NCBI GenBank assembly: GCA_963815095.1
Contig: CAWFFH010000003.1
Span: forward strand, 192,001 to 256,000
Direction: 5' to 3'
DNA length: 64,000 nucleotides
DNA from: Candidatus Bathyarchaeota archaeon
GTDB taxonomy: Archaea; Thermoproteota; Bathyarchaeia; Bathyarchaeales; Bathycorpusculaceae
Shown here: positions 6,405-17,506 of the stretch, piece after piece
Layout: each line of letters begins with the position of its first letter
Numbering within the stretch: position 1 is the stretch's first letter
Made by a program: the position numbers and the translations under genes
Notes under the pieces: generated by a model
Seen by the model: the letters and a program-made list of their open reading frames with translations, nothing else
Databases searched by the model: none
Told to the model about the DNA's origin: nothing

Positions 6405-9173
6405 TTATGCGCGTTTTCGCATCAGTACTAGTGCTACTAGTATGATTACGATTATCAGCGCAACGAATAGGCCTGCGATTGCTGGAACGAAGTATAGGTC
6501 AGCTGGTGATGGTGCTGCTGTAGGTGCTAAGGTTGCGTGTTCAGCGACTGGATCAACTGCGAATGCAGTTGTCGTGGTTGATGGCCAGTAGCCATTGGTT
6601 CCGTGGAAGGTTGCTACGACAGTGTATATGCCGGAAATGTCTGGAGTCCATTGTAAGTTGTATTGACCTGTTGCATCAGTAGTTGCTGTTCCGATGTTGC
6701 GATAGTTTCCGTTAGCATCCATGACATCGATCGTCACTGGGACGCCGAGGAAGTTGCTTGGCAATGGTTTCTGCTGGTAGACGTAACCCATCCATTCGCC
6801 CATGACCGTGTCATTTGCGAGTGGAATACCGTTAGGGAAGCGAGCCGATTGTTCTGCTTGTTTTGAACCTGCTGAGATGTCGTAGACTGAGCCTGTGATG
6901 ACTAATGACTTGCCTAGTTCAATTGATGCTTGTGGTGCTGACACTGAGATTGTGCTTACGCCTCTACCGATTGAGTAGATTTGATTGTCATAGCTGTTGT
7001 ACCATGTTGCGTATCCATCTGCAATTGCATAGCTTTGGGTTGTGAATTCAGTTGTATATGATGATATCGTCCAGAGTTCTTCACCTGTTGTTGCGTTGAG
7101 TGCACGTGCTAAACCGCCTTTGTAGATTGGCATTTCGACAGTGTGCTCTGAAGACACTGTATATACGACGCCGTTGGAGATTGCGTTGACAAATGTTGGG
7201 TAGTGACCTGGAACTTCAAAGCCGCTGTCTGTGCTGTTGCCCATACCGCCGTTACCGTAAGTCCAGAGGAGGTCGCCTGTGGCTGTGTCATAGCAGTAGA
7301 CGATGCCTGCGTATGCGCTGCTGTAATATTTGCCATAAGCAAATGTACCGCCTAAACTGCCTGAGGCTTGGCTGCCGTAGTAGTCAAAGTTGTCTTGTGG
7401 CTGTGTTGTCCAGAGTTTTGCGCCTGTGTCCATGCTGTAGCCGACTAAGGTTTGGGTTTCTCTGAGGTCTTCTACGAAGACGCGGTTAATGGGGTCGATG
7501 CCTTCTTCGAGGACTGTTATGTTGTTTGCTGGTGGGTCATAGTTCTTCATCCATAGGATTTGGCCTAGTGTTTCTGGTTTTAAGCTGACTGCGAAGTATG
7601 TGTATGGAACGAAGCTTAGTGAACCCATGAAGGTTGCTCCTTGTGATGGTAGTGTACCGTTGTAGCATAGCATCATGTCGTTGGGGATTATGCCTACGAC
7701 TGTGGGTGAGTTTGGCATTGTGTTACGCCATGGGATTGAGACGTTCCAGTCAAAGCGGTTCTGTGGGTCTGTAGTGTTAAGGACTCCTCCGTTCACTATG
7801 TATGTGTTGGCGTAGAAGGCTGCAGATGAAGCTGATGGTGGAACACTCATAACAGCTCCGGAATTTATGACTGCTGACGCGTTGATAATTGATGGTGAAA
7901 GTAAGCTGCCGCCTGTGAAGGGGTTTGTTCCGAATGTCCAGAGTTTGGTTGAGTTCCATTCCGCTAGAACCCAGTTTGGACTTGCTGTGGTGCCAAGGTT
8001 TGACATAATGGTTCTTAGTTGTTCACCGTTTGGACCAAGAGTCAATTGATAGTATGATGCTGATGGTACACCTGTAACGTTGAATAAGGCGTTGCCGGTT
8101 GCTGCGTCAAAAAGGCGTCCAAAGTTTGATGTTGATAGGATTGCTGGGAATACACCGTGTTGGTTAGGGTCTTCGTGATCCCAAACTAGAGCAAAGGATA
8201 GTGTTGGTAGGTCTGAACGTGACCAGATGAGTTGTCCTGTTCTTAGATCAACACAGTTTAGTGGGCCCGAGTTTGAGCCTGTGAAGGATATAGGGTCGTT
8301 GTAGTAGATTTTGCCGTTGACTACGATTGGGTTTTGGTATCTTTGGTTGTAGGCTGAGCCTTCGAACCATGCATTGCCGGGGATTGTGAAGTCGTTGCCG
8401 CCGACGATACCGCCGACTTGGTTGCCCATTACTTTAGTCCACATGATGTGTGATGTAAGTGGTCCAACTGCGAAGCCTGGAGTGAATTGTGCGCCGTTAC
8501 CACCCAAGTTATAACTTGCTACGAAGCCGCCGAAGCCTGGTTGACCGGTTCCGAGCCAGTTAGAGCTGATTGTCCACCAGAATGGGTTTTCGCCGTAGAT
8601 TGGGCGTGTCCAAAATTCTTCTGGAAGTGGGTAGCTAATTGGGAAAGTGTCGATAGCGTTTTGTTGGACTGTCAGCGTTGAGACTGATTGACTTGGCAGA
8701 TATGTATCGTTAATCATTGTTGTGATTGGGCTGTGTGGGTAGTCGTTGATAGCTTGTCCTGGGAAGTTAAAAGTTAAGGTATAGGTTCCTGCAATGGTTG
8801 GTGTGAACTGGTAGCTTTGTGATGATGTTGTGTCAATAACTGTATCGAATGTTTTGGTCGTGTTTTCACCATTGGGGTCTGTTATGGTAAGTTTGTAGTT
8901 GTGGAATCGGTAGTCATTGTTGACGGCAGCATAATTGATTGACCCTGCTGGTTCACCAGCAGGATAGTAACCATAAACGCGGTTAAGCCACATATAAATT
9001 AAGGTTGTTTGGCCGACACCGATGGGGTTAGGTAGAGCCTCAATATATGCTACTGTAGGCAGGTCTTGTGATGGTGTGTGTGCTGCTGCGGGTTTTAACA
9101 TTGTTATTGTAGTTGCTGTTGAGATTGCTAACAATAAAATTATTGCTATTGCTGCTTTTTTACCAAAATTCAT
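6405..9173 (-). CDS. Secreted PQQ-like beta-propeller surface protein, paralog 3, C-terminal TM anchor
   Basis: 922 aa; signal peptide ending AAA-HTP; DLRTGQLIW, DTGAKLW, TATGDLLW, NATTGEELW repeats; C-terminus DLYFVPAIAGLFVALIIVIILVALVLMRKRA. Confidence 0.88.
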   Translation of the reverse strand: MNFGKKAAIAIILLLAISTATTITMLKPAAAHTPSQDLPTVAYIEALPNPIGVGQTTLIYMWLNRVYGYYPAGEPAGSINYAAVNNDYRFHNYKLTITDPNGENTTKTFDTVIDTTSSQSYQFTPTIAGTYTLTFNFPGQAINDYPHSPITTMINDTYLPSQSVSTLTVQQNAIDTFPISYPLPEEFWTRPIYGENPFWWTISSNWLGTGQPGFGGFVASYNLGGNGAQFTPGFAVGPLTSHIMWTKVMGNQVGGIVGGNDFTIPGNAWFEGSAYNQRYQNPIVVNGKIYYNDPISFTGSNSGPLNCVDLRTGQLIWSRSDLPTLSFALVWDHEDPNQHGVFPAILSTSNFGRLFDAATGNALFNVTGVPSASYYQLTLGPNGEQLRTIMSNLGTTASPNWVLAEWNSTKLWTFGTNPFTGGSLLSPSIINASAVINSGAVMSVPPSASSAAFYANTYIVNGGVLNTTDPQNRFDWNVSIPWRNTMPNSPTVVGIIPNDMMLCYNGTLPSQGATFMGSLSFVPYTYFAVSLKPETLGQILWMKNYDPPANNITVLEEGIDPINRVFVEDLRETQTLVGYSMDTGAKLWTTQPQDNFDYYGSQASGSLGGTFAYGKYYSSAYAGIVYCYDTATGDLLWTYGNGGMGNSTDSGFEVPGHYPTFVNAISNGVVYTVSSEHTVEMPIYKGGLARALNATTGEELWTISSYTTEFTTQSYAIADGYATWYNSYDNQIYSIGRGVSTISVSAPQASIELGKSLVITGSVYDISAGSKQAEQSARFPNGIPLANDTVMGEWMGYVYQQKPLPSNFLGVPVTIDVMDANGNYRNIGTATTDATGQYNLQWTPDISGIYTVVATFHGTNGYWPSTTTTAFAVDPVAEHATLAPTAAPSPADLYFVPAIAGLFVALIIVIILVALVLMRKRA

Positions 9174-9403: not shown

Positions 9404-10399
9404 CTGATCTTAACTCCACAAGTCACAGAAACACAAGTAAAAATTCTCAAAGAATTACTATCAGATGGGCGTAAAAGCATCAAAGAAATAGCAAAAAGTA
9501 CGGGACTATCAAAGGCAACTGTTAAGACAAATTACAAAAACTTGGAAGAAACCGGAATAATTACTGGAGCAACAACCCACATCAATTACTATCTTTTTGG
9601 ATACAAAGCAGTAGCCAACATCTTAATCAGCGTTGACTTCAACCAATCTGAACAACTCATTGAGTACTTACGAAAAATGCCAGAAGTTTACGCGGCTGCT
9701 AGCCGGGGACCCAAAGGAGACATCAGTGTTGTCATCATTCTTAAAACGCTGGAACAATTAAACGAAGTAAAAGATCTCATTAAAAGGAATTTTTTGGTCT
9801 TTGAAATGAAAACCGCAATCTGGACCGATGTTAAAGAAATGAATGAAAACGTATCCATAACCCCAGAAAACAGAAAAAGACCGACTGCTGATACCACTAT
9901 AAAGAATTCACAGAAAAAAACTATCACTAAAATAATTAATGTGGATGAAATAGACCAAAAAATCGCTGATAGACTCGCTGAAAACGGACGTATCACCATG
10001 GAGTCTCTTGGAGAACAATTAGGAATTCCAAGTAGATTGGCAGAAAAAAGGTACGAAAAATTAAAGAAAAATGGCTTTTTAAAAGTCACAATTCAAGTTA
10101 ACCCCCAAAAAATTGGATACTGTGGGACATGCGTGTTTTTCACAGTTACATCCCATGAAGATCCATACTCAATTATCGAGAAAATCAAAAACATCCCTGA
10201 CATCATAAGCATTATGAAGACAACGGGAGATTATGATTTACAAATATGGGCAATGATACAAGACTTAAATCAACTGTTTGCAATAAAAGAAAAAGTCGAA
10301 AAAATTCCAGGATTAACCAAAATTGATTTACAGTTAATACAATTCGGAGAAAAATTGGAAAAATGGCCGACACCCAAGCAATACATATCGACTTTTTAG
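9404..10399 (+). CDS. Lrp/AsnC family regulator with duplicated HTH+RAM modules
   Basis: Track ORF starts at 9542, but the frame is open upstream and encodes an AsnC HTH (QVKILKELLSDGRKSIKEIAKSTGLSKATV) back to CTG 9404. Second module VDEIDQKIADRLAENGR...TTGDYDL. Start position is inferred. Confidence 0.85.
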   Translation: MILTPQVTETQVKILKELLSDGRKSIKEIAKSTGLSKATVKTNYKNLEETGIITGATTHINYYLFGYKAVANILISVDFNQSEQLIEYLRKMPEVYAAASRGPKGDISVVIILKTLEQLNEVKDLIKRNFLVFEMKTAIWTDVKEMNENVSITPENRKRPTADTTIKNSQKKTITKIINVDEIDQKIADRLAENGRITMESLGEQLGIPSRLAEKRYEKLKKNGFLKVTIQVNPQKIGYCGTCVFFTVTSHEDPYSIIEKIKNIPDIISIMKTTGDYDLQIWAMIQDLNQLFAIKEKVEKIPGLTKIDLQLIQFGEKLEKWPTPKQYISTF

Positions 10400-10523: not shown

Positions 10524-11507
10524 TTGATTAACCTCAATCAACTTGACGCAAAAATAATAAGACTTCTTTTACAAGATGGGAGAACCAGTTATGATGAATT
10601 AGCGAATGAGTGTGATGTCTCCAAAAACGCCGTTTGGAAACGTTGCCGGATGATGGAAAAAAAAGACATAATCAAAGGCGCGACAATTCAGATGAATTTC
10701 TGCGATTTTGGATTTGATGCTCTTGCCACTCTGCTCATCAGCGTTAATGCACAGCAAATAGAGGAATCCATGAAGTTAATTGAAAAGGTGACTGAGGTAC
10801 GTGCCTACCGCCAATATAACAGTGTTTTTAACATTAGAGCAACAGTAACTTTGAGGAATTTGAATGAACTGGATCATGTTAAACAAGTCATCAAGCAAAA
10901 ATTACCCACTCTAAGTTTGAAAACTTACATATGGACGGGTGTTAGGAACATGCCCGAAAACCTGACTCTTACCAACAATCCGATGGATACTAATGGCAGC
11001 ATCCGAATGGATTCAGCTAAAAGGGCAGTCACATCAAAAGGAAAGGTAATAATCGATGAGATAGATGAACAAATAGTAACCGAACTTGCCCTAGATGGAC
11101 GTAATTCGTTTACTCAAATTTCAAAAAAAATCAATGTATCTACGGACACTGTCGTAAAAAGATACAAGAAACTTAGACAAACCGGGGCAGTAAAGGTCTC
11201 CATTCAAATAAACCCGAACGAAATGGGGTACGCTTCAATATTGGATTTCAACATGTCTTTTATGACTGAGAGCGGCTTATCAGATACTGTAATAGAAGCT
11301 CTTAACAAAATACCCAACTTAATCATTATCACCAAAACCAGTGGAGATTATGATTTGCAAGTAACCGCAATGATAAGAGACATCACTGAGTTGTTTGCCA
11401 TCCAAGACCAAATTGCAAAAATATGCGGCCTTACAAAAATAGAAACCAGTGCTAGAAAAATCCCTGATAAATGGCCAACTCCAAGACAATACATATCAAC
11501 ATTTTAA
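10524..11507 (+). CDS. Lrp/AsnC family regulator with duplicated HTH+RAM modules (paralog)
   Basis: LDAKIIRLLLQDGRTSYDELA and IDEIDEQIVTELALDGRNSFTQIS HTH modules; TSGDYDL; same KWPTPxQYISTF C-terminus as the upstream paralog. Confidence 0.9.
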   Translation: MINLNQLDAKIIRLLLQDGRTSYDELANECDVSKNAVWKRCRMMEKKDIIKGATIQMNFCDFGFDALATLLISVNAQQIEESMKLIEKVTEVRAYRQYNSVFNIRATVTLRNLNELDHVKQVIKQKLPTLSLKTYIWTGVRNMPENLTLTNNPMDTNGSIRMDSAKRAVTSKGKVIIDEIDEQIVTELALDGRNSFTQISKKINVSTDTVVKRYKKLRQTGAVKVSIQINPNEMGYASILDFNMSFMTESGLSDTVIEALNKIPNLIIITKTSGDYDLQVTAMIRDITELFAIQDQIAKICGLTKIETSARKIPDKWPTPRQYISTF

Positions 11508-11517
11508 TATTTGTTTG

Positions 11518-11595
11518 TGGCGGGTCCGAAGGGATTTGAACCCTTGACTTTCAGCTTAGAAGGCTGACACGCTATCCGTACTGCGTCACGGACCC
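11518..11595 (-). tRNA. tRNA-Arg(TCT)
   Basis: Reverse complement folds as a cloverleaf: GGGTCCG/CGGACCC acceptor, TCAGC-CTTCTAA-GCTGA anticodon arm, AAGGG-TTCAAAT-CCCTT T arm, encoded CCA. Confidence 0.96.
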
Positions 11596-11892
11596 ACATA
11601 GGGCACTCTAAATGATGTGCTTCCAGATATAATTTTACCTATTGCATTCAAGCAAAACCCATACGCCTAACATACCATCAAAAACTGTGGTTCAATAATC
11701 AGCTCGTTTAAACATCCTTCACACCTCAACCAAAAGAATCCCACAGCAGATAAGGAGAAAAACAATCACCACCAAAAAAAATCAACCCAAGTCAACACAA
11801 AGAGAAGTTGTTGCTGTTGCTGCTGCAACTCATTTCCCACCGATAAGTTGTAACAATCAACCTAAACCCACACAAAACAAAGAAGCTAACGA

Positions 11893-13002
11893 TTATGTTT
11901 TCCAGCCAGGACCAGCTTTTTTACCCAAAACAAACACTTGAATATGCCCAACAATGAGCAAGACCATCCAAATAGTAGAATAGAAGAAGTAATAAACGAA
12001 TAGTTCATGCAGTTTTATTTGATTAAATCCAAGTTTTCTTGAAAACCCATAGAAAACCCCGGCGGAAAAAGCGAAACCTGACAGGGAAATAATCAGAATC
12101 TTTATCGCATCTGCAGTTCCCAACGACATTAGAAAAAGCGGCAAGGCAATATTGAATTTCACTGACAAAAACAGTGAAAAAACCAAAAGCGAATTATACA
12201 TCCAAAGACTAGGAACAAAAGCGCTTAAAAACAAGACAACAACAGAAGGATAAAGGAAAAATAGGCTGGGAAGAAATATCTGGGGTTTTTTAATGAAGTG
12301 CCTAGCTAACTGTTTGTACCAATCCTTAAGCCACAACGCCTGACCAATAGACCACCGTCTACGCTGGGTAAGCCATTTCTTCCAATCCACATGAACCTCA
12401 TTCTTTACTTCAACATCAGTTGTATAGGCAAAACTACTATCCTCCAAGAAAGCTCGAGTTGCAAGATCTATATCTTCTGGAACAACTTTTCGAAAACCAT
12501 GGATTTTTTCAAACATTTCTCTCTTAATCGAGAAGGCAGCCCCATTCACAGCTGGACATTTATGCATATACCTCGACGCTAGCCAAGAGCTGATATTGAA
12601 AGTTAAGTATTCGTAATAAGCCATTTTTGAGAGGAAAGAACTATTTTTGGTAACTTTCTTTTTAATATCCAGTATATCGGTATGCTGCATTTCCATAATG
12701 ATTTTTCTAAGGTAGTCAGGGTCATTTGTGAGCCCAATATCAGAGTCAAGGAAAAGCAGAACTTTACCTGAAGACAACTTTACGGCGCTGTTTAGAGCAG
12801 TCGCTTTTCCAGTACGTTCCTTGTTAATAATGAATTGGACGTTTTCGTTTTCAAGCTGCTTTATTTCTTCCTGGAAATCGTCGGTTGGCTGGTCAACGGT
12901 GACAAAGATTTCCTTCGAAACATTTTGGGAACAAAGTTCGTTTAGCATTCCTGCTAGCTGATTGGATTCTTGGTAAACGGGAATGAAGATGCTGACGTCC
13001 AC
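11893..13002 (-). CDS. Glycosyltransferase family 2, membrane-bound (processive type)
   Basis: VSIFIPVYQE, GKATALN, LFLDSD (DxD), PEDIDL, QRRRW (QxxRW); C-terminal TM helices. Confidence 0.9.
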   Translation of the reverse strand: MDVSIFIPVYQESNQLAGMLNELCSQNVSKEIFVTVDQPTDDFQEEIKQLENENVQFIINKERTGKATALNSAVKLSSGKVLLFLDSDIGLTNDPDYLRKIIMEMQHTDILDIKKKVTKNSSFLSKMAYYEYLTFNISSWLASRYMHKCPAVNGAAFSIKREMFEKIHGFRKVVPEDIDLATRAFLEDSSFAYTTDVEVKNEVHVDWKKWLTQRRRWSIGQALWLKDWYKQLARHFIKKPQIFLPSLFFLYPSVVVLFLSAFVPSLWMYNSLLVFSLFLSVKFNIALPLFLMSLGTADAIKILIISLSGFAFSAGVFYGFSRKLGFNQIKLHELFVYYFFYSTIWMVLLIVGHIQVFVLGKKAGPGWKT

Positions 13003-13143
13003 AGCTAATCCTCAGTAAACAACCTTTCATTTTGGTTATTGTCATTGTGCTTTTTAAAGCATTCTAAAATCAGGTGACCCTCACAATTGTTTAGGCTCCT
13101 ACCAACTAACCGGCCTCCCTACGCAATTCATCTGAAAGCTGAC

Positions 13144-14226
13144 TTATTTTTTAACGTAGACAGCACTTGTTGGGAATGCAATTTCTATGTTTTCTCTATC
13201 AAAGGCGCCTTTTATCGCGAAATTAATCGCCTGCTGAGTATCCAAATATTTGCCGTAATCCGCTGAGTTGATGTAGTAGATGACGAAGAATTTTAAGCTG
13301 TAATCTCCAAATTCCGTAAAGTTTACCCGTTCCACATCAGCGGAATCCACGTTCTTAATTATGCTTGTTATTATCTCAGGGATCCCCCTGAGTTTTTCAA
13401 GCGGAGTATCGTAGGCAACCCCAATGGTGAATGTAACACGTCGTTTTTCCAATTTCCTAAAATTTCTAACACTTGTCGAGGTAAGTTCTTTGTTGGATAT
13501 TACGAGTTCTTCACCTTGAAGCAGCTTAAGTCTAGTCGATTTCACTCCGATGTTTTTGACGGTTCCGCTGTATTCTCCTACAATGATGAAGTCTCCGATT
13601 TCAAACGGTCGATCAAAGTAGATGGAGAAGGCGCTAAAAAAGTCGCTTAATGTATTTTGAAGCGCAAAAGCTATGGCGATGCCTCCAACTCCTAGGCCAA
13701 CAACTGCACCTGTTAAATCAACGTTGAATATAACGAGAATGAGAAGAAATGCGGCGACGTAAACGATTACCTGTATAACTTTCTTTAATAGAAAAAGGAG
13801 GTGGTGACTGTTTTTTCCTGTGACAAGAGCGGTTCTGGTTGCATACCAGTCTGCCACTATATTGGATATTCTTGTAACTCCAAAAGCTCCTAGAAAAATT
13901 TGCATAACCGTAAAGACACCGGTTAACGTTTCGTTATAGGGCTGAAGGAGTGACAGAGGCGCCAATGCATATTCGATACCTAATATGACGATTGAAATGA
14001 TTATGATGCTCTTTACTGCATTTAATATGTCGTCGTCTAGCGTGGTTTCTGTTTTTTGCGCCCACTTAGAAAAGTATCTTCCAAAGATTATGTATGCGAC
14101 CCCGCCGACAAGGGCAACGATTAAAAATATTGTTACAGATGCCAAGATTTCACTGGTAAACTGGTTTGTTTGAAGGAACTGATGGAATATTTCTGTGAGA
14201 CTAGCCATCTTTCTTATACACTTCAA
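13144..14226 (-). CDS. mscS: Small-conductance mechanosensitive channel
   Basis: GLGVGGIAIAFALQNTLSDFF, DRPFEIGDFI, GTVKNIGVKSTRL, IEIAFPT. Start may be the second Met (MASLTE). Confidence 0.93.
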   Translation of the reverse strand: MKCIRKMASLTEIFHQFLQTNQFTSEILASVTIFLIVALVGGVAYIIFGRYFSKWAQKTETTLDDDILNAVKSIIIISIVILGIEYALAPLSLLQPYNETLTGVFTVMQIFLGAFGVTRISNIVADWYATRTALVTGKNSHHLLFLLKKVIQVIVYVAAFLLILVIFNVDLTGAVVGLGVGGIAIAFALQNTLSDFFSAFSIYFDRPFEIGDFIIVGEYSGTVKNIGVKSTRLKLLQGEELVISNKELTSTSVRNFRKLEKRRVTFTIGVAYDTPLEKLRGIPEIITSIIKNVDSADVERVNFTEFGDYSLKFFVIYYINSADYGKYLDTQQAINFAIKGAFDRENIEIAFPTSAVYVKK

Positions 14227-14296
14227 TGTTTAATTCAATTAGCTAAAGTCAAGTTAAAATAAAAATTCAAATTAACCCTTATTTATGTTCCTCAAT

Positions 14297-14788
14297 TTAA
14301 CGTATTTTTTCATGCTCAATAGAACCTATTCTGTAGAGGACCTCGGCTTCGTGGCTATCGTTTTCAAAGTCTTCTCGGCTAAACAGAACCTTCTCTTCAC
14401 ACTTTGAATTCAGAGCCTGGGCTAGCTTGAAGATATTGTTTTTAGCTGCTTCGTTTGATGGGTTCACTGTACACTCAAAATATTTGGCGTGTTTCATTCT
14501 TATTTGCTCACGAAGCATGCGTAGTTGTAAGCCGTTTCCACGATAGTCTTTTTGAACTAGGATTTCCCAGCTGAAAAAAGTGTCTGGTCTGTTAGGTGAC
14601 ATGTAACCTGAAGAAAACCCGACGATTTTGCCATTACACAGGGCAACAAGGCAAGTGTCAGAAAAATCCCTTGCCAAAAGAAAATAAGTGTACATTGAGT
14701 TTAAGCCAACGTATGGCCTGTTTGCAACAAGCATCTTGTAAACTTCTTTGATGTCTGACAAGCCTAGCTTTCTGAATTTAAAATTCAA
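14297..14788 (-). CDS. GNAT acetyltransferase, EctA (diaminobutyrate acetyltransferase)-like
   Basis: LNSMYTYFLLARDFSDTCLVA, IVGFSSGYMSPNRPDTFFSWEILV, YRGNGL, TVNPSNEAA and HEAEVLYRIG follow the EctA motif order. No ectB/ectC in the window. Confidence 0.8.
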   Translation of the reverse strand: MNFKFRKLGLSDIKEVYKMLVANRPYVGLNSMYTYFLLARDFSDTCLVALCNGKIVGFSSGYMSPNRPDTFFSWEILVQKDYRGNGLQLRMLREQIRMKHAKYFECTVNPSNEAAKNNIFKLAQALNSKCEEKVLFSREDFENDSHEAEVLYRIGSIEHEKIR

Positions 14789-14802
14789 TCCAGATTTGGT
14801 TT

Positions 14803-16146
14803 CTATCGTTTAGGGCACCTTGTTACTTTTTTTCTTCGCTCTAGCCGCTGGTTGCCTTTTGGCACAAGCGAAATCGTTTTGTCAGCATCGGTCAACAATT
14901 TTTCTATTCCAATATAGGTTTTTTCATCTTCGTCTTGTTTAAGTTGCAAAACACATTTGCCGCAATCTTTCTTGCATTCAACTGATTTGTAATTATCAGG
15001 TTCTTTGTAGGTTGTGATTACGCCTTCATAGTTTCTAAGAATAACTTTGTTTGTTGACCAAGAAATTATGTAGTTTGGCATAACTGGAATTTTTCCGCCT
15101 CCGCCTGGAGCATCAACTACAAAAGTTGGAACTGCAAACCCGCTTGTGTGTCCTTGAAGACTCTCCATTATTTCAATGCCTTTGCCAACAGATGTCCTGA
15201 AGTGAGTTAAACCTTCGGAGAGGTCACATTGGAAAAGGTAGTAAGGTCTAACTCTGTTTTGTACAAGTTTTTGGTTTAGCTTTTTCATGATTTGTGGGCA
15301 ATCGTTTATTCCTGCGAGAAGTACCGATTGATTTCCCAATGGAATTCCTGCATCTGCTAATTTCCGAAGCGCTTCTCGAGAGGAAGGTGTGAGTTCTCTT
15401 GGATGATTAAAATGAGTATTCAACCATAATGGATGATGTTTCTTTAGGATTTCTACAAGTTCATCAGTTATTCGGTATGGCAAAACAACTGGGGTTCTTG
15501 TGCCTATTCTTACTACTTCAACATGTGGAATGCTGTTTAGTTCGGTTAAAATCCAGTCCAGATACTCGTCAGGCAACATTAAAGCGTCGCCTCCTGAAAG
15601 GAGCACATCCCGAATTTGACCGTGATTTCTAATGTAGCTGATTCCATCCAGTATTTGTTGTTTTGAAGGAATATGCTCTGGGTCGCCGACTTTTCTTTTT
15701 CGTGTACAATGCCTGCAGTACATTGCACAGCGGTTACTTATCAAAAAAAGCACTCGGTCAGGGTAACGATGAGTGATACCTTTGGTTGGGCTGTCTTTAT
15801 CCTCGTGGAGAGGGTCTTTCATGTCATGTTTACAAACTTTAAGTTCAGCAGGGTCAGGGAAGGCTTGTTTCAATATAGGGTCGTTACAGTAATTTTCTTT
15901 TTCTATTAAAGAAGCATAGTAAGGTGTTATGCAGAGTGGAAATTTCTTAATTGTTTTTTCTAACACTCTGCGTTCTTTTTTAGTAAACGATATCCCTGTG
16001 AAGCTTCCAAAAGCTTCAATTGTTTTTATCGAGTTTTCCAGTTGCCACTTATAATTTTTCCACTCACTAACATCCACTTTTTTTTCTGTGGTTTTAGCCA
16101 AGTAAGCTTGGTAACTTGTAAGGGTTTCAAAACCTTCAACAATCAT
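14803..16146 (-). CDS. ablA: Lysine 2,3-aminomutase (radical SAM/PLP), AblA/KamA type
   Basis: [17 protein letters not shown] (CxxxCxxC), [15 protein letters not shown] (PLP lysine), [19 protein letters not shown]-terminal Cys cluster CKKDCGKC. Confidence 0.92.
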
Positions 16147-16476
16147 TCTTAAAATATCTCTCTCCGAGCACTTTTCTGTCTGTCTTTTTCGATAGAACCT
16201 TTATAGTTTTTATTTGTTTTTGACAACTCGAATTTGCAAAATAGCGAATTCGTCTTAACAACCAAACCTCATGCACCTTAAATAGCAAAAGAGTTCAAAC
16301 GAAAAAATTTGTGATAATTATCTAAAAAATACAAAATACACGAAAATATTGGCATAGTATTTACCATGAAATCTTAACGCTTTAACAGCTCGTTTTCTGC
16401 TGTTTTTCCTGTTCCAGCTGTTCACTTGTTGTCTATAGGAAAATTATTATGTGCCGCATAAGAGTACATCTCCGTT

Positions 16477-17496
16477 ATGACTAAGGTTAAAGCAATAAGT
16501 TTGCTTTCAGGCGGATTAGACAGCATCCTTGCCACAGAACTCATCAGGCGTCAAGGAATCGAAGTGGTAACTTTTAACGTTAAAACCCCCTTTGGCATCC
16601 CCAAAAAAGACGGGTCAAGCGAAGCTGCTCAAGCCGCAAAGCAACTAAAAGTCCCCCTAAAAATTGTCACAGTCGAACAGGACTATCTTCGGATGCTACG
16701 CAACCCAAAACACGGCTACGGCAAAAACCTAAACCCCTGCGTAGACTGCAAAATCTTCATCCTCAAAAAAGCAAAAAAGTACGCCAAAGAAATCGGTGCG
16801 GACTTCATTTTCACGGGCGAAGTGTTAGGTGAAAGACCCATGTCGCAACATGGTCCTGCATTAAAGATTATTGCAGAGGAATCAGGCTTGAAGAGCAAGC
16901 TTTTGCGTCCCCTATCTGCGAAGCTATTGGCTAAAACCGTTGCGGAAAAGAAGGGTTTAGTTGACCGAAACAAGCTGTTGGGCATTCAGGGCAGGTCACG
17001 CAAACCCCAGTTTGCCCTTGCAGCAGATTACGGGATAACGGTTTACCCGTCGCCTGCAGGCGGATGTCTCTTAACGTGTGAAGAATACTCCAAGAAGCTT
17101 CAGGACCTCTTCGAAAACAAGAAACGCTTGTCCATGGCGGACATAGCACTGCTGCGGATAGGCAGGCACTTTAGGCTTGGAAAAAACAAGATCATCGTTG
17201 GCAGAAACGAAGCTGAAAACAAGTTTTTACTTGCCAACAAAACGCGGAGCGACTTATATTTTGAACTCTCCGATGTGGTTGGACCAACAACTCTTTTACA
17301 GGGACCCAAAACAAAGCTGGCAATCGAAACAGCCGCAAAACTGACCGCTTCTTATTCAGATGCTAAATCTGAAGAAGCCACAGTGAAGTTTGGAAGAGAA
17401 AACCTCGATAAATCCGTAACTGTTACATTGCCCACGAAGGCTGATGTGGCTAAACTTAGAGTAGGCAATTTAGAGAAAAAACCAAAAAAAAAATAA
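16477..17496 (+). CDS. PP-loop tRNA thiolation enzyme (ThiI/MnmA-like) with probable C-terminal DUF814-like domain
   Basis: LLSGGLDS PP-loop, NPCVDCK, TGEVLGERPMSQ, PSPAGGCLLT, IGRHFRL..KIIVGRNEAEN. Confidence 0.8.
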   Translation: MTKVKAISLLSGGLDSILATELIRRQGIEVVTFNVKTPFGIPKKDGSSEAAQAAKQLKVPLKIVTVEQDYLRMLRNPKHGYGKNLNPCVDCKIFILKKAKKYAKEIGADFIFTGEVLGERPMSQHGPALKIIAEESGLKSKLLRPLSAKLLAKTVAEKKGLVDRNKLLGIQGRSRKPQFALAADYGITVYPSPAGGCLLTCEEYSKKLQDLFENKKRLSMADIALLRIGRHFRLGKNKIIVGRNEAENKFLLANKTRSDLYFELSDVVGPTTLLQGPKTKLAIETAAKLTASYSDAKSEEATVKFGRENLDKSVTVTLPTKADVAKLRVGNLEKKPKKK

Positions 17497-17506
17497 GACC
17501 GTAAGG

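Follow-up and report, generated by a model that had tools for sequence, protein, structure and literature searches.

A conserved gene pair of lysine 2,3-aminomutase and an EctA-family acetyltransferase in Bathyarchaeia, a candidate route to acetylated beta-lysine

In a 64,000-nucleotide stretch of the genome of a Candidatus Bathyarchaeota archaeon (assembly GCA_963815095.1, contig CAWFFH010000003.1, positions 192,001 to 256,000; hereafter the window), a gene for lysine 2,3-aminomutase (ablA) is followed directly by a gene for a GCN5-related N-acetyltransferase (GNAT) that belongs with EctA, the diaminobutyrate acetyltransferase of ectoine synthesis, instead of with AblB. An original prediction made from the letters of the window had noticed this pairing and proposed that an EctA homolog was recruited to acetylate beta-lysine. 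The two genes constitute a cassette that is distributed patchily, as a two-gene indel, in Bathyarchaeia, and the acetyltransferases encoded next to ablA form a monophyletic, long-stemmed clade that is, as far as searched, specific to this class. N-epsilon-acetyl-beta-lysine is a compatible solute of methanogens, made by AblA and AblB, and EctA acetylates the distal amine of diaminobutyrate. In the pathway proposed here, AblA would convert L-lysine to beta-lysine and the clade GNAT would transfer the acetyl group of acetyl-CoA to beta-lysine, as a non-orthologous replacement of AblB. EctA's chemistry at the distal amine suggests, by analogy, N-epsilon-acetyl-beta-lysine as the most likely product, which is also the zwitterionic solute that arises from AblA and AblB. 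We link the GNAT to beta-lysine because it co-occurs with AblA in adjacent genes and because its EctA relatives outside the clade sit beside ectB. From this genomic context we infer what the enzyme acetylates, at which amine, and with which product, as well as the osmotic role, and we consider it probable that the enzyme acetylates beta-lysine for use as a compatible solute.

The conservation of the pair was assessed at two taxonomic depths. In an even sample of 201 Bathyarchaeia genomes, in which AblA and EctA-like genes were counted above the cut-offs of their hidden Markov models (HMMs), AblA was found in seven genomes, and the same seven carry the EctA-like gene (G000, G151, G193, G086, G169, G090, and G098). 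In every one of them the EctA-like gene follows ablA directly on the same strand, and 40 to 68 nt separate the HMM-matched stretches. Within the genus of the window, represented by 41 genomes, AblA occurs in 18, always with the GNAT gene directly downstream (18/18). Conversely, a GNAT of the clade is present in 21 of the 41, and 19 of these have AblA directly upstream, including G472, where the contig ends inside AblA. A collection of species genomes supplied further loci, and there, too, AblA is followed by the GNAT in 8/8 cases (one of which, L004, is on the same contig as the pair of G151). Thus, the link between ablA and the EctA-like GNAT, for which the original prediction had asked for a survey of ablA neighborhoods, is conserved at each of these levels.

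The identity of the first gene is well supported. Its product matches TIGR03820 (lys_2_3_AblA) at the equivalog level, with 755.6 bits against a cut-off of 525.4, as well as the Pfam families LAM_C and Radical_SAM, and it is clearly related to the lysine 2,3-aminomutase of Clostridium subterminale (2a5h; phmmer E = 1.7e-151). When aligned to 2a5h, the window protein retains the CxxxCxxC motif (C125/C129/C132) and equivalents of R134, D293, D330, and K337, which we take to be the residues that bind lysine and pyridoxal 5′-phosphate (PLP). LysA is encoded in the genome (484 bits), and a supply of L-lysine for AblA is therefore possible.

The second gene falls just inside the EctA family and outside AblB. 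The GNAT scores 125.6 bits against TIGR02406 (ectoine_EctA), a margin of 5 bits over the cut-off of 120.6, and also matches Pfam Acetyltransf_1. The AblB model, TIGR03827, gives no match at E ≤ 0.01, and the GNAT has 163 residues compared with the 266 positions of that model. The comparison of the two HMMs therefore favors the assignment to EctA that had been made from the motifs, albeit marginally. Homology to solved EctA structures is evident (3d3s, E = 6.8e-24; 6sk1, E = 1.5e-19). An AlphaFold model built from a 102-sequence alignment has a mean predicted local distance difference test score of 94.5, and the top 10 Protein Data Bank matches found with Foldseek are all EctA chains, with template modeling (TM) scores of 0.81 to 0.90 and root mean square deviations (rmsd) of 1.7 to 2.4 Å; the GNATs that follow in the list are at E ~1e-9. 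The predicted fold of the GNAT is thus EctA-like.

The enzymes that usually accompany AblA or EctA were sought in the whole genome, which measures 2.69 Mb in 9 contigs and is 98.45% complete. The best match to AblB reaches 19.7 bits (cut-off, 205.1) and lies at another locus, and none of the 201 genomes in the class sample has AblB above the cut-off, while the controls, B. subtilis and M. acetivorans, were positive. EctC has no match in the window's own genome or in six other carriers (together G000, G086, G098, G169, G090, G193, and G151), in a family search that did detect EctC, at 191.6 to 198.6 bits, in four genomes from a different class of the phylum. For EctB, the best match in the own genome has 208.7 bits, and the best scores among the carriers tested range from 208.7 to 233.4 bits, all below the cut-off of 552.2. 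The lack of ablB, ectB, and ectC that had been observed in the window therefore holds for the nearly complete genome (for EctB, in the sense that no gene exceeds the cut-off).

These results bear on the possibility that the GNAT is a true diaminobutyrate acetyltransferase, forming N-gamma-acetyl-diaminobutyrate, and merely adjoins ablA. The curated EctA model is passed, the fold matches EctA with TM scores of 0.86 to 0.90, the core residues N30, S31, W74, H146, and E149 are common to both, and databases (NCBI and IMG) label relatives of the GNAT “diaminobutyrate acetyltransferase.” However, neither EctC nor an EctB above the cut-off accompanies the enzyme in its own genome or in the other carriers tested. 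A sample of 301 genomes from the phylum divides in the same manner: the four genomes with a high-scoring EctA (159 to 182 bits) are exactly the four with EctC, whereas five Bathyarchaeia with a low-scoring form (125 to 137 bits) carry AblA instead. Even the EctA model does not hold across the genus, where 16 of the 21 GNAT orthologues score above the cut-off and 5 below it, at 114.5 to 119.3 bits. Together with the genomic surroundings of the outside relatives and the residues described below, these observations make a diaminobutyrate acetyltransferase quite improbable.

To place the GNAT among its nearest relatives outside the clade, a metagenome collection was scanned with an alignment of the representatives nearest the clade in a FastTree phylogeny together with P0124, the clade fragment P0127, and the window GNAT. 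The scan yielded 80 loci, with GNATs 30.6 to 43.7% identical to that of the window. An ectB gene is present in 75 of them (in 74 it follows directly downstream), and in the other 5 the contig stops just past the GNAT gene; ectC was found in 55/80 and ectD in 21/80. None of the 80 outside loci contains ablA, which speaks against a true EctA beside ablA in the window. The order of genes in the 75th ectB locus (L102, also from a metagenome) is noncanonical: ectA is followed by ectC and ectD, and ectB lies ~4.4 kb downstream of ectC-ectD. Additional EctAs were collected, seven of them plasmid-borne with annotated ect genes and four from ectC-bearing genomes of another class of the phylum. Six of the plasmid-borne EctAs belong to canonical ectABC(D) clusters. 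The seventh, in a Streptomyces cluster (L017, plasmid NZ_CP108205.1), has ectB upstream and an ectoine-synthase gene further downstream; genes for an adenylating enzyme, a carrier protein, a P450, and a ferredoxin accompany ectB and ectA there, as does the separate ectoine-synthase-like gene. The locus has the appearance of a gene cluster for a natural product and is another instance in which enzymes of the ect family serve other ends than ectoine synthesis as such.

The phylogenetic analyses separate the ablA-linked GNATs from these EctAs. In a FastTree phylogeny of 161 sequences, the ablA-adjacent GNATs form one clade with a support of 99 and a stem of 0.65. A quick IQ-TREE search that included six distant outgroup GNATs, whose branches are very long, grouped the EctAs with the ablA-linked clade (support, 95) and recovered the clade itself with a support of 100 and a stem of 1.94. 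The group of EctAs and clade has a basal polytomy in this rooted tree, compatible with a clade nested in EctA or sister to it. A search of 1.84 billion representatives returned a few clade members at 55 to 72% identity (several of them fragments), after which identity drops to ≤45%. Close relatives of both AblA and the GNAT bear source names such as “Candidatus Bathyarchaeia archaeon,” and the wider searches for ablA together with an EctA-family gene covered Thermoproteota genomes and one metagenome scan. We propose that the clade GNATs are divergent members of the EctA family with a remodeled acceptor pocket.

A comparison of 132 clade sequences with 86 ectB-adjacent EctAs identified nine positions that are fixed differently in the two groups and are 95 to 100% conserved in the clade (Table 1). 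The residues common to both comprise N30, S31, Y33, W74, R83, N112, H146, and E149. The motifs of the window GNAT read V27-G28-L29-N30-S31, W74-E75, and H146-E147-A148-E149, while the solved EctAs have LDLNS and WQ at the first two. The VGLNS and WE variants and the kept HExE motif reported in the original prediction are thus all present, and the changes from D to G and from Q to E are invariant across the 132 clade members, which is not expected of a true EctA. On the structural model, positions 26 to 28 lie in the alpha1-alpha2 loop, 36 and 41 in alpha2, 71 to 77 in beta4, and 95 in alpha3, such that eight of the nine positions are in the loop, alpha2, or beta4. GNATs generally have their acceptor site lined by the alpha1-alpha2 region and beta4, and these eight changes fall, according to the model, in predicted acceptor-site elements. 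Beta-lysine is two carbons longer than diaminobutyrate and has a beta-amino instead of an alpha-amino group. The shift in the charge of the pocket, with one Asp lost, a Glu and an Asp gained, and an Arg lost, would fit a longer beta-amino substrate.

Table 1. Positions fixed differently in the ablA-linked GNAT clade and in ectB-adjacent EctAs (window GNAT numbering)
Position	Clade	EctA
Y26	Y 132/132	gap 85/86 (Y is an insertion)
V27	V 132/132	L 86/86
G28	G 132/132	D 80/86
F36	F 126/132	L 70/86
D41	D 131/132	H 75/86
F71	F 131/132	L 74/86
E75	E 132/132	Q 85/86
77	V 128/132 (L in the window GNAT)	A 77/86
Q95	Q 126/132	R 75/86

The same evidence can be read as indicating that the GNAT acts on beta-lysine, or on another product of AblA, with a different outcome or for a nonosmotic purpose. 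Examples are acetylation of the beta-amine to 3-acetamido-6-aminohexanoate, detoxification or storage of beta-lysine, and a first step toward a larger metabolite. The linkage of ablA and the GNAT applies equally to these cases; G28, D41, E75, and Q95 reveal a pocket unlike that of EctA and do not tell how the substrate is oriented in it; and the pair occurs in genomes that are not necessarily from saline habitats, with no osmotic-stress gene conserved beside it. Nevertheless, the pair is not accompanied by any conserved tailoring or further biosynthetic gene either, and acetylation of the distal amine is established for EctA, of which product-bound structures exist. We therefore regard such an alternative as possible, if unlikely. 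A more specific form of it, in which the remodeled pocket orients the substrate for acetylation at a different nitrogen, giving 3-acetamido-6-aminohexanoate (N-beta-acetyl-beta-lysine) or another undescribed acetylated diamino acid, appears doubtful; if true, it would add a new compatible solute for Bathyarchaeia of soils and sediments.

A catabolic role of AblA, as the start of lysine fermentation or another degradative route with an unrelated GNAT beside it, has some general appeal, since KamA-type enzymes initiate lysine fermentation in clostridia and descriptions of Bathyarchaeia often portray them as fermenting organic matter. However, a search for the 3-keto-5-aminohexanoate cleavage enzyme (Kce/BKACE) gave no match, with a working control. 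Beta-lysine 5,6-aminomutase (KamD) likewise had no match anywhere, in a search whose control genomes were silent too and which therefore says nothing on absence. Moreover, AblA above the cut-off without the GNAT was found in 0/7 carriers of the class sample and 0/18 of the genus, which is hard to reconcile with an unrelated acetyltransferase. Taken together, these results render a catabolic role highly improbable. A group of shorter KamA-family proteins (~360 to 400 aa, 467 to 517 bits, just below the AblA cut-off) is common in other families of Bathyarchaeia (for example, G028:C8:25286-26353 and G014:C8:42461-43492) and is not paired with the EctA-like GNAT.

Several observations weigh against the acetylation of beta-lysine as the function of the clade. 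Two genomes of the genus, G464 (56% complete) and G479 (66% complete), encode a clade GNAT without adjacent AblA, the only exceptions found, and AblA has no match at E ≤ 1e-10 anywhere in these two incomplete genomes. Their GNATs (L118, G464:C13, 3643-4128; L119, G479:C20, 5860-6540) retain PYVGLNS and WE and have a C-terminal extension of ~60 aa; they may have a role without AblA or be relics. The comparison of residues draws on 132 sequences of which 14 were checked for an adjacent ablA, the rest being at least 62% identical to the window GNAT. The genome also has a class-III aminotransferase with ~209 bits to EctB, which could in principle supply a diamine. Finally, since the GNAT passes the EctA model and has an EctA fold, a retained activity on diaminobutyrate is compatible with the sequence. 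Each of the two stand-alone GNAT genes has an HD-domain gene to one side and, to the opposite side, aIF1A, Rio-kinase, and KH genes.

The extent of the cassette can be delineated from its surroundings. In the genus, the conserved gene order is CysS, MiaB-like, AlkD-like, and ThiI-like genes, then ablA, the GNAT gene, and a gene for a membrane-associated family-2 glycosyltransferase (GT2). In G038, which is 100% complete and lacks both AblA and the GNAT, the ThiI-like gene is 184 nt from GT2, representing an empty site. In four other genomes (G470, G490, G462, and G473) the pair is located away from GT2, and in other genera (L011 to L014) the pair alone is held in common, with NUDIX, TFIIB, Rad51-like, and other genes as its neighbors. 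Because of the empty site, the placement of the pair away from GT2, and the restriction of the shared content to the pair across genera, the cassette is delimited as a two-gene indel, which would have been gained and lost as a unit within Bathyarchaeia. GT2 itself had been considered as a third member, as suggested by the order ablA-GNAT-GT2 in 8/8 close loci, and was rejected. It occurs in 37/41 genomes of the genus with or without the pair, and we place it outside the cassette because it is genus-wide without regard to the pair, is present at the empty site of G038, and is distant from the pair elsewhere.

In the window (Table 2), the coordinates, spacings, and family calls of ablA, the GNAT gene, and the mscS gene behind them are as originally predicted, in agreement with the list of open reading frames (ORFs) and the HMM matches. 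According to the ORF list, the gap between ablA and the GNAT gene is 14 nt (14789-14802) and that between the GNAT gene and mscS is 70 nt (14227-14296). The true start of mscS may instead be an in-frame ATG located 18 nt inside the gene, which would widen the second gap to 88 nt.

Table 2. Features of the cassette and its immediate surroundings in the window
Feature	Position	Strand	Remarks
ablA, lysine 2,3-aminomutase (radical S-adenosylmethionine, PLP)	14803..16146	-	447 aa; cassette gene 1
EctA-family GNAT, proposed beta-lysine N-acetyltransferase	14297..14788	-	163 aa, TTG start; Bathyarchaeia-specific ablA-linked clade
mscS, small-conductance mechanosensitive channel	13144..14226	-	360 aa, TTG start; three Pfam MscS domains
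GT2, family-2 glycosyltransferase with membrane segments	11893..13002	-	Pfam Glycos_transf_2; flanking core gene of the genus, outside the cassette
Intergenic region from ablA to the divergent ThiI/NFACT-R gene	16147..16476	.	AT-rich; presumed cassette promoter region

The position of mscS behind the pair would fit the release of a solute on osmotic downshift, and the original prediction had combined the three genes in a synthesis-plus-release module. This part of the prediction did not withstand comparison with other genomes. Among 17 pair loci, mscS lies directly downstream of the pair only in the window. Orthologues of the window MscS (50 to 74% identity) are present in 19 of the 40 other genomes of the genus, with and without the pair; 10 genomes contain the pair as well, in each case on a contig other than that of MscS or hundreds of kilobases from it. 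MscS was therefore ruled out as a conserved release partner, being placed behind the pair in the window only, with orthologues never beside it. The genus carries mscS as one of its usual genes, and in this genome it happens to follow the cassette; the placement may be functional here, although it is not a conserved feature. Judged by eye, the 70-nt spacer is rich in A and T, and mscS could have its own promoter there. At one other locus (L012, in G098), a 35%-identical MscS is found 2.8 kb from the pair. Between them is a 129-aa fragment (L012, 9832-10221, +) that matches the C-terminal part of sucrose-6F-phosphate phosphohydrolase and may be the remnant of another solute pathway.

The intergenic region upstream of ablA in the window has no Rfam match at E ≤ 1. 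A riboswitch or other known RNA near the cassette was considered and rejected, as an Rfam scan of positions 11000 to 17500 at the same threshold returned only a tRNA and two chance-level matches. The tRNA gene (RF00005, 68.3 bits; 11521-11595, -) is situated between GT2 and the second of two Lrp/AsnC-like genes. The latter (10524-11507, +) encodes a 327-aa regulator in which the Lrp/AsnC architecture is duplicated (HTH_AsnC matches twice, and a ligand-binding domain is present), and adjoins a gene for a 285-aa regulator (9542-10399, +) whose matches are confined to its C-terminal half. Neither regulator gene was found beside the pair in the compared stretches elsewhere, save for a weak, 27%-identity match ~4 kb away in L004/L016. 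On the other side, the divergent neighbor of the cassette (16477-17496, +), kept across the genus, encodes a PP-loop domain resembling ThiI/tRNA thiolases and a C-terminal NFACT-R_2 RNA-binding domain. Further away (6405-9173, -) is a gene for a protein of 922 aa, probably located at the cell surface, which begins with a signal-like segment and ends in a membrane anchor. Genes for its relatives (27 to 54% identity) are found close to the pair at several further loci (L006, L012, L014, and L015).

Some copies of the cassette are interrupted or duplicated. All seven matched genes of L010 are broken into two or three frames, the GNAT gene of L008 is split by a single frameshift, and AblA is split in G468 (L116); these look like errors of assembly or in homopolymers, or like decaying copies. 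One genome (G460, 71% complete) has two copies of ablA-GNAT-GT2 on separate contigs (G460:C24 and G460:C8), which could reflect a duplication or a bin that mixes strains.

Neither the chemistry nor the logic of the operon proposed here is new; the novelty lies in which acetyltransferase is encoded, namely, a clade of the EctA family that straddles the annotation threshold of EctA. A literature search, with subscription papers and supplements outside its reach, retrieved no paper connecting lysine 2,3-aminomutase to Bathyarchaeia or to an EctA-like enzyme; one paper deals with both the aminomutase and diaminobutyrate acetyltransferase and treats the pathways separately. Under current names, genomes of Bathyarchaeia can be read as those of partial ectoine producers, despite having no EctC and no EctB above the cut-off in the carriers tested, and the clade GNATs are probably mislabeled in databases. 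Bathyarchaeia are uncultured archaea of soils and sediments. If the proposed function is correct, the cassette would provide a first concrete handle on the osmotic and desiccation physiology of a very abundant and almost uncultured archaeal class. It would also mean that a few fixed changes shifted an EctA-type scaffold from a C4 diamino acid to one with six carbons, and these changes would be direct targets for mutagenesis. Genome surveys are affected as well. The 2018 ectoine review, in its account of the taxonomic survey, identifies genomes by EctC and would therefore be blind to a stand-alone relative of EctA (PMC5924519). Likewise, surveys of N-epsilon-acetyl-beta-lysine that use ablB (KEGG K21935) as the marker, in the manner described in PMC11337218, would miss this lineage entirely.

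The cassette resembles several known systems in part. In Bacillus subtilis, kamA-yodP places the gene for an aminomutase beside that for a GNAT, as in the window; YodP is of the AblB type (B. subtilis scores above the cut-offs for both the AblA and the AblB models), whereas the partner in Bathyarchaeia is of the EctA type. To our knowledge, the physiological role of kamA-yodP is unclear. The AblA-AblB system of methanogens and “Ca. Methanoperedens” has the same first enzyme, an AblA equivalog, and the same order of two genes, aminomutase and then acetyltransferase. The GNAT of Bathyarchaeia thus takes the position of AblB directly downstream of ablA, yet it is an EctA-family protein of 163 aa that the AblB model does not recognize. 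The kamA-ablB operon of “Ca. Methanoperedens” is described as salt induced and preceded by the MscS-like gene ynaI (PMC11337218). The channel gene is upstream in that cluster and downstream in the window, and it is not conserved with the pair in Bathyarchaeia. In structure, the GNAT is closest to the EctA enzymes of ectABC(D) clusters (3d3s, 6sk1, 6sll, and 6sjy), to which it is homologous and which, as the best matches, superimpose on its model with rmsd values of 1.7 to 2.0 Å at TM scores of 0.86 to 0.90. It shares with them the eight core residues, and it passes the TIGR02406 cut-off by 5 bits. However, the partners of EctA are ectB and ectC, whereas that of the GNAT is ablA; the ectB-adjacent EctAs are only 27 to 44% identical to it and differ at the nine positions of Table 1; and in place of the LDxNS and WQ motifs and the conserved His and Arg of EctA, the GNAT, in its separate long-stemmed clade, has G28, E75, D41, and Q95, along with the inserted Y26.

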